From positions 1 to 21,539 of the IMG/VR virus record IMGVR_UViG_2565956714_000006: a stretch of DNA of 21,539 nt; one strand, given 5' to 3'. Origin of the DNA: a virus (Duplodnaviria > Heunggongvirae > Uroviricota > Caudoviricetes). Below, in pieces: positions 1-9,300 of this stretch (the stretch's first letter is position 1; every line of letters begins with the position of its first letter). Both the position numbers and the translations under genes were made by a program. Under the pieces are notes generated by a model. That model saw only the letters and a program-made list of their open reading frames with translations, was not told where the DNA came from and did no database searches.

Positions 1-1215
1 ATGCTCACCGTTAAGCAGATTGAAGCAGCAAAGCCGAAAGAAAAACCATACCGCCTACTCGATGGTAATGGCCTGTACCTTTATGTCCCTGTATCAGGGA
101 AAAAGGTATGGCAGCTTCGCTACAAGATTGACGGTAAGGAGAAAATCCTGACTGTCGGAAAATATCCGCTTATGACTTTGCAGGAAGCAAGGGATAAGGC
201 ATGGACTGCGAGGAAAGACATCTCGGTTGGCATCGATCCGGTAAAGGCGAAAAAGGCTTCGTCTAACAACAATTCCTTTAGTGCGATTTACAAGGAATGG
301 TACGAGCACAAGAAGCAAGTCTGGTCAGTAGGCTATGCAAACGAACTTGCCAAAATGTTTGACGACGACATTTTACCCATCATCGGCGGTCTTGAGATTC
401 AGGATATTGAGCCGATGCAACTGCTGGAAGTAATCCGAAGATTCGAAGATCGCGGTGCAATGGAGCGAGCCAACAAAGCCCGCAGAAGATGCGGCGAGGT
501 TTTCCGTTACGCTATTGTCACCGGAAGGGCTAAATATAACCCAGCACCTGACCTTGCTGACGCCATGAAGGGATACCGCAAGAAGAACTTCCCGTTTCTT
601 CCTGCAGACCAGATCCCGGCATTCAACAAAGCACTGGCAACATTTTCAGGAAGTATCGTATCGCTCATTGCGACCAAAGTTTTACGCTACACAGCCCTAA
701 GAACGAAAGAGCTTCGTTCCATGCTATGGAAGAACGTCGATTTTGAAAACAGGATTATCACCATCGACGCCAGTGTGATGAAGGGACGCAAAATTCATGT
801 GGTTCCTATGTCAGACCAGGTAGTTGAACTTCTCACTACGCTAAGCTCCATCACCAAACCAGTATCAGAGTTTGTTTTTGCCGGTCGCAACGATAAGAAG
901 AAGCCAATCTGCGAGAACGCGGTATTGCTTGTGATCAAACAAATCGGCTATGAGGGTCTGGAAAGCGGTCACGGATTCAGGCATGAATTCAGCACGATTA
1001 TGAACGAGCACGAATGGCCTGCTGATGCTATTGAAGTGCAACTGGCACATGCCAACGGCGGATCTGTGCGTGGGATTTACAACCATGCTCAGTATCTCGA
1101 TAAGCGCAGAGAAATGATGCAGTGGTGGGCGGATTGGGTTGATGAAAAGGTGGAGCAACCAACATTGCTATATTCACTCAGCAAAAACAACAAAAATGTC
1201 AACATAACCAAATAA
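1..1215 (+). CDS. int: P4/IntA-family tyrosine integrase, 404 aa, apparently complete; window starts exactly at its ATG
   Basis: N-terminus MLTVKQIEAAKPKEKPYRLLDGNGLY is typical of P4-type integrases. C-terminal catalytic signature present (R in LRTKELRS, HxxR in HGFRHEF, Y in IYNHAQY). Confidence 0.9.
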   Translation: MLTVKQIEAAKPKEKPYRLLDGNGLYLYVPVSGKKVWQLRYKIDGKEKILTVGKYPLMTLQEARDKAWTARKDISVGIDPVKAKKASSNNNSFSAIYKEWYEHKKQVWSVGYANELAKMFDDDILPIIGGLEIQDIEPMQLLEVIRRFEDRGAMERANKARRRCGEVFRYAIVTGRAKYNPAPDLADAMKGYRKKNFPFLPADQIPAFNKALATFSGSIVSLIATKVLRYTALRTKELRSMLWKNVDFENRIITIDASVMKGRKIHVVPMSDQVVELLTTLSSITKPVSEFVFAGRNDKKKPICENAVLLVIKQIGYEGLESGHGFRHEFSTIMNEHEWPADAIEVQLAHANGGSVRGIYNHAQYLDKRREMMQWWADWVDEKVEQPTLLYSLSKNNKNVNITK

Positions 1216-1419
1216 TTACATATTCATGTTCAGGAATATCGGTGCAATGAACACAAAAAGGACATTTCCAGCAATGAATCCATTTATTTTTTGTTCTTTT
1301 GAAACAATACGATAGCTTCTTAGAAGCCAATCCACAAGCATGCAAATCAAAACCGTTGGACAGTAGACGATCATTATGGTAACTGCTGCAACTATATACT
1401 GTACAATTTCACTAGGCAT
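1216..1419 (-). CDS. Small hydrophobic ORF (67 aa, two predicted TM segments) in an AT-rich remnant between int and IS5; possibly a moron remnant or spurious
   Basis: ATG-initiated ORF with an in-frame stop just upstream, so it is not an IS5-truncated longer gene. Weak Shine-Dalgarno, AT-rich rare codons. Stop codon abuts the int stop. Confidence 0.25.
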   Translation of the reverse strand: MPSEIVQYIVAAVTIMIVYCPTVLICMLVDWLLRSYRIVSKEQKINGFIAGNVLFVFIAPIFLNMNM

Positions 1420-1444
1420 TAAAGATTTTCACTATGGTTACTAG

Positions 1445-2640
<1,196 letters not shown>

Positions 2641-2728
2641 TTAACTATGAGATGAGTCTATGCAAAAAGATCTGTTGAATATTGCGTTCTATATATTTGG
2701 TTTTTGCACATTCCTGGTGTTTGCAAAG

Positions 2729-4726
2729 CTATTCTGACAACGAATCAGACTTCGCACCCTGCGTCAGGGCGTTAATTGCCTTTTGTGCCTGCTGCATGGC
2801 TTTCTCAAACGCTGTTGATCCGCGTGGGGTGTTTGCCATTCGGAGCATTGCATTTCTGAATGGCTCGCTCTCATAGGCGCGAGTAAGAAGTCCGTAGCTT
2901 ACTGCTGCGCCAGTTGTCGCCGGGTTCATTGCCGTCCCATACCCAATAATGAACGGGATAGTTTGCTGCCCTGTGGGTGTTGTTACTGCCGCTTTTGCAG
3001 CCTGCTGCGTGGATTGCAGGTAGTTTTTTAATCCTTTCAGATAAGCGGCTTCCTGACCTTTAAATGTGATGCCAGTCTGGTTTTGCAGGATGTTAAGCTG
3101 TCGAAGGAACTGGTCAGGGGATCCACCTGATTTCTCCATCGCCTTTCCAATGATGCCATTGCGCATTTGCGCCCTGCCAACACGACCAACTGAGTTATAC
3201 AGCGTCTTAATTTCCGATTTGTTCTTGCTGAATAGCATGTTGTTGACAACTTCCGGCGTCAGGTCGCCTTTCATGAGAACATTCTTCAGCCTGGTATTCT
3301 TTAGTTTCGCCGCTTCGTCAGCGTAGACGGCATTGGCCTGCTGATATTTACGGAGAGTATCGTTGCCAAGATTCTGACCAATGGCACCATTGATATCGTC
3401 TGTCATTGCCTTGTAAACGCGCTGAATGGCAGCATCGGACCGGTTTGGTAACACTGGTCGTTCCCCCTTCACGTCCATTCTGAACTGGCTGCGCAGATCG
3501 CTTAATTGCTTCAAATCCAGATTTACCGGACCATCAGGACCAGCATTGCGAACAAGCTCATCACGATAGGACTGAAGTTTTGAAATAGTCTCGTTATCGG
3601 CGACCTTACCAAGCTTCTGCAGGTTAGATATTTCTGTATCAATCTGCTGAATTGCTCGAGCAGGCTGGATATTGACTCCCGCCATTGCATTCTGAACCTG
3701 CTCAAGACGGTTCCCTGCAGCACGACGAATTCCTGATGTTTTCGCTTTAAGGCTGTCAATAACAACAGCTGGATCATACTCACCGAATTTATCAGCAAAT
3801 CTCTGCACCAACTGGCTTCTCGCTTCCTGTTGCGTTGCTCTCATTCCGCTTGTGCCAGCCAGGGGGATATTTTCCGCTGTCGTCTGCGCCATTTTCCCGA
3901 CGCGGGAAGTAGGCTGTAACAGGTCTGTGGTGTGCAGAGGAACTCCTTCACGCTCTGCAAATCTGATAGCCTGCTGCGCTTCTGGCGCAATAGCACCACG
4001 AACGCCACGATAAGCAGCACCTAATCCACGTCCGGCAGCGTTAATAGCACCGCCAGCCAGCACACCAACGCCTAAATCGGTAGCGAGTGCTTCAGCATCA
4101 TCTTTCATACTGTTTGCAGCAAGTGATCCAACTGCGTTTTCTGCTAGAAGGCGAGTTGCCCCCTGAGCAATTCGACCAGCAAGTGTTGGTGCCTGTACCG
4201 CCGCTCTCTCAACGCCAGCAGGAGTGAGGTAAGGCAATGCTTCAGCAAATACCCTTCCCTCTGTCGTTTGTGGAGTCAGCGCGCCTTGCTGAAGGCCAAA
4301 GTCCTGCTCTACCCCCTGCGTTGTTACTCGTGGCGCTGGTTGATATGTACCATCGCCAATGCCGAGTTTACCGCCAGCCCATGCCGCTGCGCTTGTTACA
4401 GCATCGGCAACTGATGCAGGTATGTTTGCCACGTTCACGCCAGCCTGCACCAGTCCGCGACCAGTCTCTTTTACTGCTTCGCCAAGATCAGACATAAATC
4501 CACTTTGCTGTGGTTGTTGCTGTGCTACTGGTTGCTGTGTCTCCACTTGCTGCACAGATGGCAATGGATAGGCAGCATAGAAAGCTTGCTTAGCCTGCTC
4601 TGCATTTTCTCCGGCTTGCGGGGCCACGACTTCATTGAAGTATTGCTCCTGAGCCTGCGCTTTTTGTTCTGGTGCTAACGCCTGATACTGTGGAGAGGCG
4701 ATAACATCTTTCCATGCTTTAGCCAT
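2729..4726 (-). CDS. P22 gp16-like ejection (internal virion) protein, 665 aa
   Basis: Last gene of the morphogenesis operon in the position of P22 gene 16 / Sf6 gp13. Ala/Gln/Gly-rich composition typical of ejection proteins. Start ATG overlaps the upstream stop (TAATG). Confidence 0.7.
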   Translation of the reverse strand: MAKAWKDVIASPQYQALAPEQKAQAQEQYFNEVVAPQAGENAEQAKQAFYAAYPLPSVQQVETQQPVAQQQPQQSGFMSDLGEAVKETGRGLVQAGVNVANIPASVADAVTSAAAWAGGKLGIGDGTYQPAPRVTTQGVEQDFGLQQGALTPQTTEGRVFAEALPYLTPAGVERAAVQAPTLAGRIAQGATRLLAENAVGSLAANSMKDDAEALATDLGVGVLAGGAINAAGRGLGAAYRGVRGAIAPEAQQAIRFAEREGVPLHTTDLLQPTSRVGKMAQTTAENIPLAGTSGMRATQQEARSQLVQRFADKFGEYDPAVVIDSLKAKTSGIRRAAGNRLEQVQNAMAGVNIQPARAIQQIDTEISNLQKLGKVADNETISKLQSYRDELVRNAGPDGPVNLDLKQLSDLRSQFRMDVKGERPVLPNRSDAAIQRVYKAMTDDINGAIGQNLGNDTLRKYQQANAVYADEAAKLKNTRLKNVLMKGDLTPEVVNNMLFSKNKSEIKTLYNSVGRVGRAQMRNGIIGKAMEKSGGSPDQFLRQLNILQNQTGITFKGQEAAYLKGLKNYLQSTQQAAKAAVTTPTGQQTIPFIIGYGTAMNPATTGAAVSYGLLTRAYESEPFRNAMLRMANTPRGSTAFEKAMQQAQKAINALTQGAKSDSLSE

Positions 4727-7882: not shown

Positions 7883-9300
7883 TACTCAATCCTTATCTGG
7901 CAGACAGACAGAGTGACAGGTGACTTCGTGATAACACGCAATTTGAAGCCGACATTTTTCCTGATGCGCCCTACTCGTTTCCACAAAACGCGTTTGTCGT
8001 AAACGAACGGTTCATTCTGCTCAATCATCTGCTCACGTCCGTAATTGATGCCGTCAGTGGTTGCAGAGAGGAACAGGCGGTCGGCGTACTGAGCTACGCC
8101 AGTGGATGATTCCACCTCCAGATCGAAGCATCTGGCGTTATCCGCTTTGAACAACGGAGTAAACAGCAGGTGTTCCTGTTGCTTGTCGTACTGGCTGCTG
8201 ATATCGAACTGCAATTTCCCGGTAACAGATTCCAGCTTATCGCCGCACGTTATCTGATTGCCTTCGTAAATGAAGTCGATAGCGCGGTACACATCGTCAT
8301 ACAAGCCTGTTTTCAGTACACACCATTGCGGACCATTGGCGCTTGAAGATGCGTCGTACACGAGGACGTGGCGCGGAAGGTGGATAATCAGCAGTTCATG
8401 CGCATCAAATCGCAGCGATTCCATCACACCATCAGCCAGTTCATCAGCAGTGTAGGAGCGGAGGATTTTCTCAATGCTCGCGCTGGCGATTGGTGATACC
8501 TGACCGGAGCCGATGATGTATACAGACGGCGCACCTGTTGCCGGATTGCTGATGAACGCATACGAGTCAGCAAACGGCGTTTTGCAGTAGGTCCCGGCAA
8601 TGCCTTTCTGCACCATCAGCGATGGTTGTGCAACATACAAAGCGGCACCAACGGTGGTTGCACCAGTCAGGGAAAAATACTCAATCGTCGATGAACCAAA
8701 GCAGACGATGAAGTCTCGCCATGTTCCGATTCCGATGATGCCGTCAGGCTGCGACTCGGCACGATATTGTGCGCTGTAGCGGTCAGGATGCGATTCGTCT
8801 TCAAGGTCAGTGATAAACCATGAATCAGTGCCGTCTTTTGACCACGCATAACGCCCGCGTAAGCGCGTAATGTCACGAACAGAACCTAACTCATACTGCG
8901 TGAATCCGCTGTCTGTAGGCCAGTTTGAGACGGTTTTAACCGTGCCATCATAGCGATACTCGACCAGTTGACCATTAACGCCTACAGCCTGAGATGTCCG
9001 ACCATGTGCCATTGATACGCGACCACTTCCGGCGACGTCACCGACTTCGCTTTCGCCTTTGTAGAGCTTCCCACCACACACGCGATAAACAGCATTCTGC
9101 GCCATGTTGTACTCGACACCGCGCGATACACCATTCACATCAGAACGTTTGGCAATGCCCGGGAATGAGCGAAGATATCCGCTGCTGTTGAGTATTTCTT
9201 TGGGTGTAGCCAACATATTCACTGGCAGATAGTCGATATAGTCGGCGTTTCGAAAGTCTTTGCCGACACCTTTCATAAGCGGAAGTTGCTGAATCGGCAT
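7882..9300 (-). CDS. Head-completion / tail hub protein (P22 gp10 homologue), 472 aa
   Basis: Same length as P22 gp10 and closely similar throughout to the recalled sequence (MPIQQLP...CQIRIE). Confidence 0.85.

Follow-up and report, generated by a model that had tools for sequence, protein, structure and literature searches.

The phages epsilon15 and D3 block the α-polymerase of their host and supply a β-polymerase of their own (PMC7380047, PMC4815439). How a prophage-encoded Wzy polymerase overrides the resident enzyme is an open question outside these two systems, and it has been raised for capsule conversion in Acinetobacter (PMC13228068). The epsilon15 gene order is tailspike, wzy-β (392 amino acids, aa), iap and gp23-holin-endolysin; its Iap (gp21; NP_848230) is annotated as an ‘alpha polymerase inhibitor’ of 66 aa with ‘two transmembrane domains’. 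Pseudomonas phage D3 has the order tail, iap (31 aa), oac and wzy-β, and its Iap was reported to mimic the second transmembrane helix (TM2) of Wzz (PMC12004945). The Iap features used for comparison were taken from RefSeq annotation and from PMC4815439, PMC12004945 and PMC7380047. Here we analyse a small gene in a 21,539-nucleotide stretch of Caudoviricetes DNA (IMG/VR record IMGVR_UViG_2565956714_000006, positions 1 to 21,539; this whole stretch is called the window below). The gene, at 1216..1419 on the minus strand, is predicted to encode a 67-aa membrane protein. By position, size and architecture we regard the product as a candidate Iap analogue, although a member of neither Iap family.

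The open reading frame (ORF) has an ATG start, a TAA stop and 67 codons, and its translated product is MPSEIVQYIVAAVTIMIVYCPTVLICMLVDWLLRSYRIVSKEQKINGFIAGNVLFVFIAPIFLNMNM. The stop codon directly abuts that of the integrase gene intS (TAATTA), and the other flank is occupied by the insertion sequence (IS) IS5. Kyte-Doolittle analysis gave hydrophobic segments at residues 13-29 and 47-63 and a grand average of hydropathy of 1.13. The AlphaFold2 model is a helical hairpin (helix 2-35, loop 36-46, helix 47-65; mean pLDDT 76.9). A first-pass annotation, made from the letters of the window, had described a 67-aa peptide with two transmembrane (TM) helices, wedged between int and IS5 and set apart from its flanks by composition. 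Hydropathy and model bear out the first part, and the coordinates and the GC profile (0.34-0.36 at 1101-1400, 0.45-0.50 in int, 0.51-0.59 in IS5) the second; the AT-rich stretch around the ORF extends for ∼ 230 bp at 34-36% GC. An N-out/C-out topology in the inner membrane, with the loop RSYRIVSKEQK in the cytoplasm, is suggested by the charge distribution, since the N-terminus is acidic, the loop is basic and there is no C-terminal tail.

The length of the ORF alone is not beyond chance expectation: ORFs of at least 67 codons occurred in 7.4% of 5000 dinucleotide-preserving shuffles of an equivalent 348-bp AT-rich stretch (3.6% if ATG-started). All E. coli copies are identical except P0004 (A12E) and P0002 (IS1 end fused at codon 4), and identical copies alone are uninformative about evolution. 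In a word-indexed search, 5.8 billion proteins yielded only the identical E. coli cluster. The first relative, a 67-aa protein with 70% identity, came from an exhaustive HMMER scan of 1.84 billion representatives; with this relative as the query, family members named only ‘hypothetical protein’ were found, mostly in Enterobacter cloacae. Besides that of the window, five further alleles of 64-67 aa (67-72% identical) were obtained from Enterobacter prophages, one of them from a metagenome.

All pairs of these six diverged alleles (alignment A1) were compared. The N-terminal half of helix 1 is variable, and the sequence is near-invariant from M27 onwards (DWLLRxYxxVSKEQxINGFIxGNxLFVFxAPxFLNMN). 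In helix 2, G47 and G51 are invariant, as are N46, N52, P60, N64 and N66. Pairwise ratios of non-synonymous to synonymous substitution rates (dN/dS) were 0.05-0.14 across all allele pairs, with the synonymous sites near saturation (proportions of differing synonymous sites, pS, 0.36-0.78; of non-synonymous sites, pN, 0.04-0.20). The differences fall mostly at third codon positions (for example 15/8/36 and 4/1/23 at the three positions). In a six-frame comparison only the frame of the ORF contained no stops in the six alleles, and pN/pS was lowest there (0.20 overall, 0.36 for codons 5-26, 0.105 for codons 27-67). Nucleotide conservation drops sharply right past the stop codon.

The GC content at third codon positions (GC3) is 0.48-0.56 in the Enterobacter alleles compared with 0.35 in E. 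coli. Because the Enterobacter alleles keep the frame at a GC3 of ∼ 0.5, T-richness of one strand does not account for the frame, and in view of the conservation across species we judge the E. coli ORF to be more than a chance occurrence. The 67 codons are almost certainly a genuine protein-coding gene under purifying selection. The first-pass annotation had looked to conservation of the frame in related loci to decide this point and had considered that the ORF might be a decaying remnant. The frame is kept, and decay fails as a description of the coding sequence, which is 100% identical to the copies in intact loci and belongs to a selected family; AT-richness, also part of that annotation, holds for the E. 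coli allele but not for the family. PGAP leaves the gene unannotated in both RefSeq complete genomes that carry it (H2 and A23), an example of a gene skipped by automated annotation in spite of clear purifying selection.

Three other explanations of the ORF were rejected. It is not what IS5 left of the 3′ end of a longer gene, as there is an in-frame stop three codons 5′ of the ATG and the identical 67-codon ORF is present in intact loci. A terminator-like hairpin within the ORF (window 1329..1313) has a stem that is not kept in the Enterobacter alleles, and it would cut short a frame that is selected over its full length. A small RNA or a transcript antisense to int was rejected on the same evidence.

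The family is uncharacterised and not in curated libraries. The protein had no match in Pfam, PADLOC or PDB sequences and only non-significant matches in PHROGs and NCBIfam (best E 0.2 and 0.029 respectively). An Rfam scan found no antisense RNA or toxin-antitoxin element for the gene. Foldseek against BFVD gave a best E of 1.9, the two-helix model being too simple for a fold search. Searching two alleles by tblastn against 50,697 phage genomes (INPHARED) found nothing, and pattern scans of 185,579 GTDB species representatives and of IMG/VR found no member; a scan of JGI metagenomes returned one locus. All members seen to date come from prophages of E. coli and Enterobacter.

Between the end of int and the IS5 junction lie 345 bp that recur with 100% identity in only two of 5,426 complete E. 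coli genomes (H2 and A23) and in ten further contigs. The intact E. coli loci run from tRNA-Arg (argW) through intS to the 67-aa ORF, which is on the other strand; after a spacer of 104 bp come a 379-aa membrane protein of the EpsG family, encoded on the same strand as int, then tailspike, (arc) and gp16. We inspected 25-odd intact loci (L001-L028 and L037). In all those read, the small gene lies head-to-head, at a spacing of 77-104 bp, with a polytopic Wzy-type polymerase beside the tailspike gene. The neighbour is of the EpsG type (PF14897, E 1e-27 to 1e-29) in E. coli and in one type of Enterobacter prophage, the E. coli and Enterobacter enzymes being 67% identical. In a second Enterobacter type and in contig L026 the neighbour has 380 aa and no Pfam match; its hit is to TIGR04370, ‘oligosaccharide repeat unit polymerase’ (E 2e-25; 89 bits, the cut-off being 40). 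There is no BLAST-detectable similarity between the two polymerase types, whereas the small proteins that adjoin them are 84% identical. Enzymes related to the TIGR04370-type phage polymerase (41-56% identity) are encoded by the chromosomal wzy genes of galF-gnd O-antigen clusters, in Enterobacter and Superficieibacter, and no copy of the small gene was found in those clusters.

On its other side, the small gene is followed by different genes: intS, a 102-aa gene preceded by a LexA box together with umuDC-like genes, an S24 peptidase, or holins. The prophages occupy different chromosomal sites. Because sites and far-side neighbours vary and the polymerase is constant, the mobile unit is the small gene plus the polymerase, a two-gene conversion module that has moved among at least four phage backbones. 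The first-pass description of the gene as an orphan thus applies to this window; elsewhere the gene is half of a module with a phage Wzy.

Some further features of the loci were observed. The adjacent polymerases have a GC3 of 0.25-0.33 (L003, L013, L021, L026 and L027), unlike the Enterobacter small genes, which suggests that small gene and polymerase differ in their compositional past. In some Enterobacter prophages (L013-L020, 3413-6477), gtrA, gtrB and a GT_STM0557-type gtrC lie between the tailspike gene and the EpsG polymerase, so that a glucosylation cassette is paired with the polymerase and small-protein module. On the far side of the small gene in L013 (∼ 8205-8280; also in L014-L025), a 77-bp spacer leads to a gene for an MPRTADI… protein (79-102 aa) and holds a strong GGAGG Shine-Dalgarno (SD) sequence and the element CTGT-N8-ACAG. 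This element is LexA-box-like, and S24-peptidase/UmuC-like genes follow the MPRTADI… gene, which suggests that the genes past the spacer form a separate SOS-regulated operon.

Promoter calls, which are consensus matches in AT-rich DNA and not proof of transcription, placed a predicted sigma-70 site (TAGACA-16-TATAAT, 11/12) on the strand of the ORF, 40 bp 5′ of its ATG, in the intact E. coli loci (L002 9387..9360). The homologous position in the Enterobacter locus L013 reads TGGACA-16-TAGAAT (10/12); in the L021-type locus, the DNA 5′ of the small gene gave no promoter-like match. The sequence 5′ of the ATG in the window is CATAGTGAAAATCTTTA, and by eye it has no AGGAGG-like element at the proper distance, in agreement with the weak ribosome-binding site noted at first pass. 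The 64-aa alleles have AGGT- or GGGT-like SD sequences.

The small protein resembles epsilon15 Iap in its near-equal size (67 vs 66 aa) and its two predicted TM helices, and its gene likewise adjoins that of a phage Wzy-type polymerase which is itself beside the tailspike gene. The partner polymerases are of the EpsG or TIGR04370 type, in contrast to the O-antigen-ligase/Wzy_C type of epsilon15 gp22. Contig L026, from 48 bp past the small gene onwards, shares 75% nucleotide identity with the lysis module of epsilon15. In this epsilon15-like sequence the small gene, in inverted orientation, and a TIGR04370 polymerase take the place of iap and wzy-β in the same slot. Like D3 Iap, the protein is small and hydrophobic and is encoded beside tail genes, in a seroconversion module that includes a phage Wzy (PMC12004945, PMC4815439), and like D3 iap it is transcribed divergently from the neighbouring conversion gene. 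It differs from D3 Iap in having two TM helices and 67 aa instead of one TM helix and 31 aa.

Gnarl1-3 are phage proteins of 40-90 aa proposed to act non-enzymatically on O-antigen synthesis of the host, E. coli, and are comparable in this respect. However, the Gnarl phages have no seroconverting enzyme, whereas the small gene is always paired with a polymerase, and Gnarl3 binds the soluble protein GalU (PMC12373910). Identity with Gnarl1-3 was rejected, as the motifs of the family are absent from the supplementary sequences of that paper (PMC12373910). The moron position in a P22-like prophage that was proposed at first pass is supported; this lysogenic-conversion slot runs from int to the tailspike side. 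The small gene shares this slot, and presumably the purpose of modifying the O-antigen receptor, with gtrABC of the epsilon-type Enterobacter loci and with the Oac/acyltransferase of Sf6 and Sf101 (PMC8787464). These conversion genes encode enzymes or flippases of 120-480 aa that belong to Pfam families, unlike the 67-aa hairpin without a family.

H2 and A23, the two complete E. coli genomes with an intact module, have O-antigen clusters of the O133 type (rfbBDAC, wzx, GT2, GT4, wzy, gnd). In H2 the annotation gives a frameshift in the chromosomal O133 wzy (L039 19267-20425), and in A23 this gene is intact (L041 11671-12828). The frameshift could reflect decay of a redundant or inhibited host polymerase, or it could be a sequencing error. 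The corresponding cluster of an Enterobacter genome with the module (L019) is syntenic, and its wzy (P0018) shares 50% identity with the O133 wzy. The family thus appears to be tied to hosts with one related O-antigen type, as judged from three genomes only. A conserved candidate of 64-67 aa in E. coli and Enterobacter, together with the defined O133-type hosts H2 and A23, makes the override question directly testable.

We favour, at even odds, the reading that the small protein is an Iap-like intramembrane modulator of host O-antigen polymerisation, a wording that includes Wzz or WaaL as variant targets. The protein would insert in the inner membrane with both ends periplasmic and the basic loop cytoplasmic. 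The Asn/Gly face of helix 2 (N46-G47-x3-G51-N52), with P60, would bind a component of host O-antigen assembly within the membrane, the most likely target being the resident chromosomal Wzy. With the host Wzy suppressed, the phage-encoded polymerase would set the linkage of the O-units. The changed O-antigen would be an altered receptor for the phage's own tailspike, the role played by Iap in epsilon15 and D3, and would protect the lysogen from related phages. The superinfection exclusion suggested at first pass is compatible with this in the broad sense of receptor modification; the association is nevertheless with O-antigen polymerases and not with known superinfection-exclusion (Sie) proteins.

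A more specific form of this proposal is correspondingly more tentative, and we hold it to be somewhat doubtful. Here the family would be a third, sequence-unrelated class of intramembrane phage inhibitor of a host O-antigen polymerase after the D3 and epsilon15 Iaps and the first for E. coli and Enterobacter, a portable hairpin that moves together with interchangeable phage polymerases and specifically silences O133-type (TIGR04370-family) Wzy through the Asn/Gly helix face. If so, long-term lysogeny could let the chromosomal wzy decay, as hinted by the annotated frameshift in H2. Should the broader Iap-like role hold, the module would belong to a type of seroconversion module that is already known, as a new version unrelated in sequence. 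Inhibitors of O-antigen synthesis might, it has been proposed, be developed from small natural peptides that bind Wzy (PMC12004945).

Several observations weigh against an Iap-like role. There is no sequence similarity to epsilon15 Iap (hhalign of A1, probability 12.7% over 12 aligned columns), nor to D3 Iap. The small gene and the polymerase are transcribed divergently, whereas epsilon15 iap lies upstream of wzy in the same direction. The charge-based topology (N-out/C-out, with no charged C-terminal or cytoplasmic tail) is opposite to the one suggested by the sequence of epsilon15 Iap. Mimicry of Wzz was not detected by local alignment to E. coli WzzB: TM2 scored 21, with a mean of 20.5 for shuffled sequences, of which a fraction of 0.44 scored as high or higher, and TM1 scored 29 (shuffle mean 23.3, fraction 0.11), which is not above chance. 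The alleles of E. coli and those linked to EpsG have a weak ribosome-binding site, and the family is rare, with no member in the GTDB representatives, IMG/VR or INPHARED. One E. coli prophage remnant has a related TIGR04370 polymerase without the small gene, which is therefore not a universal partner. Finally, the module sits in a general hot spot for morons, and its adjacency to wzy could in principle be coincidental; coincidence is disfavoured because the pairing recurs across four backbones.

The alternative that survives best, although we consider it unlikely, accepts a real small membrane protein and takes its role to be unrelated to O-antigen (a classical superinfection-exclusion factor that blocks DNA entry, an abortive-infection or toxic peptide, or another moron function), the adjacency to wzy being that of a shared slot. 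Small hydrophobic phage proteins with exclusion or toxic roles are common. The small gene has its own predicted promoter and forms a separate transcription unit, its GC3 of ∼ 0.5 in Enterobacter differs from that of the polymerase (∼ 0.33), which points to a history of its own, and it is missing from the related wzy-carrying prophage mentioned above. A shared slot sits poorly, however, with the polymerase being the sole constant neighbour on at least four backbones and with two unrelated polymerase families. No match to exclusion, defence or toxin families was obtained from PADLOC, PHROG or Pfam. The protein also lacks the charged C-terminal tail typical of holins, and no antisense RNA or Rfam toxin-antitoxin element was found.

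Less probable again is a positive accessory subunit of the phage polymerase, which would serve as an adaptor, chaperone or chain-length modulator towards host Wzx, Wzz or WaaL and not as an inhibitor of the host enzyme. Small proteins that modulate large membrane proteins by binding them are well known. The tight head-to-head pairing with a shared control region of 77-104 bp would suit such a subunit, as would the invariant intramembrane Asn/Gly face, which is appropriate for helix-helix binding. Nevertheless, a dedicated subunit would have to serve two polymerase families without detectable sequence similarity, chromosomal homologues of the TIGR04370-type enzyme work in O-antigen clusters that have no small gene, and so does the related prophage polymerase occur without it. 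A chance ORF or decaying pseudogene fragment, its hydrophobic product an artefact of the T-rich strand, is very improbable: the frequency of such lengths in shuffles (7%), the weak ribosome-binding site, the missing PGAP annotation in H2 and A23 and the uninformative identity of the E. coli copies are outweighed by six diverged alleles that keep length, start region and stop, by dN/dS of 0.05-0.14 in the sole stop-free frame of six, and by Enterobacter alleles that are not AT-rich.

Returning to the Iap-like candidate in the window itself, its surroundings have been altered by IS5 (1445..2640, plus strand; transposase 1513-2493). The element is 99.3-99.6% identical to annotated copies in thousands of E. 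coli records and has the terminal inverted repeats ggaaggtgcgaacaag and cttattcgcaccttcc. The window matches the intact loci with 100% identity only up to 1444. The left target site is CTAG (1441..1444), where ggttaCTAG is followed by ttgatttt in intact L002 and by ggaaggtgcg in the window. The right target site is TTAA (2641..2644), which lies between the gp16 and tailspike genes in intact relatives. Window 2641-2760, which starts TTAActatgag…, is 100% identical to L007 1822-1703, and L007 reads gatttgTTAActatgag at this site. Compared with L007, ∼ 3.5 kb between the two target sites are absent from the window (tailspike, EpsG-type polymerase and control region). Because the flanking 4-bp targets are not identical and ∼ 3.5 kb are missing, IS5 marks a deletion and not a simple insertion. 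Recombination between two IS5 copies or intramolecular transposition is indicated, and either would fit. The exact junction is absent from all complete E. coli genomes in the collection.

IS5 begins 25 nt upstream of the ATG and ∼ 14 nt downstream of the would-be −10 box, and the promoter DNA is deleted. What is left of the 5′ leader (1420..1444, minus strand, 25 nt) has the TAACCATAGTG box common to the Enterobacter alleles and lacks the predicted promoter upstream. No sigma-70-like site is left on either strand of window 1100-1700. The first-pass idea that IS5 might activate the gene is without support, as the element lies between the predicted promoter position and the ATG. The IS5-associated deletion removed the predicted promoter, the partner polymerase and the tailspike gene. 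With promoter and polymerase gone, the window copy has kept its sequence but is an orphan, and it is most probably silent. Because no tailspike gene is left in the slot, the prophage itself is probably defective. The message of the window itself is therefore a modest one, that of a P22-like and probably defective prophage which lost its tailspike and conversion polymerase to IS5 and keeps a probably silent orphan. The IS5-deleted locus does offer a natural knock-out context.

The full conversion cassette consists of the small gene, the divergent control region and the Wzy polymerase. Its surviving left part is the AT-rich DNA at 1171..1444, with the left edge at ∼ 1171-1176 inside the 3′ end of int. 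The int genes of other phages (e.g. phage HK633) match only to window 1176. The same 273 bp, 100% identical, are joined to two different int 3′ contexts, one in L003, L007 and L008 and the other of the L002 type. In L003, L007 and L008 the int gene next to the cassette is a normal one of 385 aa, and it lies 340 bp further off; the L003 int ends …WLDEKVE. The window encodes an intS-type tyrosine integrase of 404 aa (1..1215, plus strand; Pfam Phage_integrase, Phage_int_M and Arm-DNA-bind_3), and the RefSeq annotation is ‘prophage integrase IntS’, beside tRNA-Arg. Since the left edge of the cassette falls within int, the 404-aa protein owes its last ∼ 13-19 residues (…QPTLLYSLSKNNKNVNITK; window ∼ 1171-1215) to cassette DNA and not to the ancestral int.

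The first surviving late gene past the deletion encodes a P22 gp16-type DNA-transfer (ejection) protein (2729..4726, minus strand), with 96% nucleotide identity to L002; it is annotated ‘DNA transfer protein’ in H2, and PF26808 (Phage_P22_gp16) was found on a homologue. Directly to the right of IS5, window 2660-2737 on the plus strand holds a hydrophobic ORF of 25 aa (MQKDLLNIAFYIFGFCTFLVFAKLF) that overlaps the 3′ end of the gp16 gene on the opposite strand. It is kept in L002 (13181-13258) with two conservative replacements (K3R and L5M) and three silent changes, and has a GGAGGA SD sequence there. This ORF may be another small membrane protein gene.

Other IS elements were observed in related sequences. 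In A23 (L001 12737-13434), IS1A truncates the prophage at the tailspike gene. In P0002, from an E. coli contig of 2640 bp, an IS1 end is fused at codon 4 of the small ORF, and the first 24 residues of the product presumably equal the translated IS1 terminus. The region of the small gene attracts IS elements.

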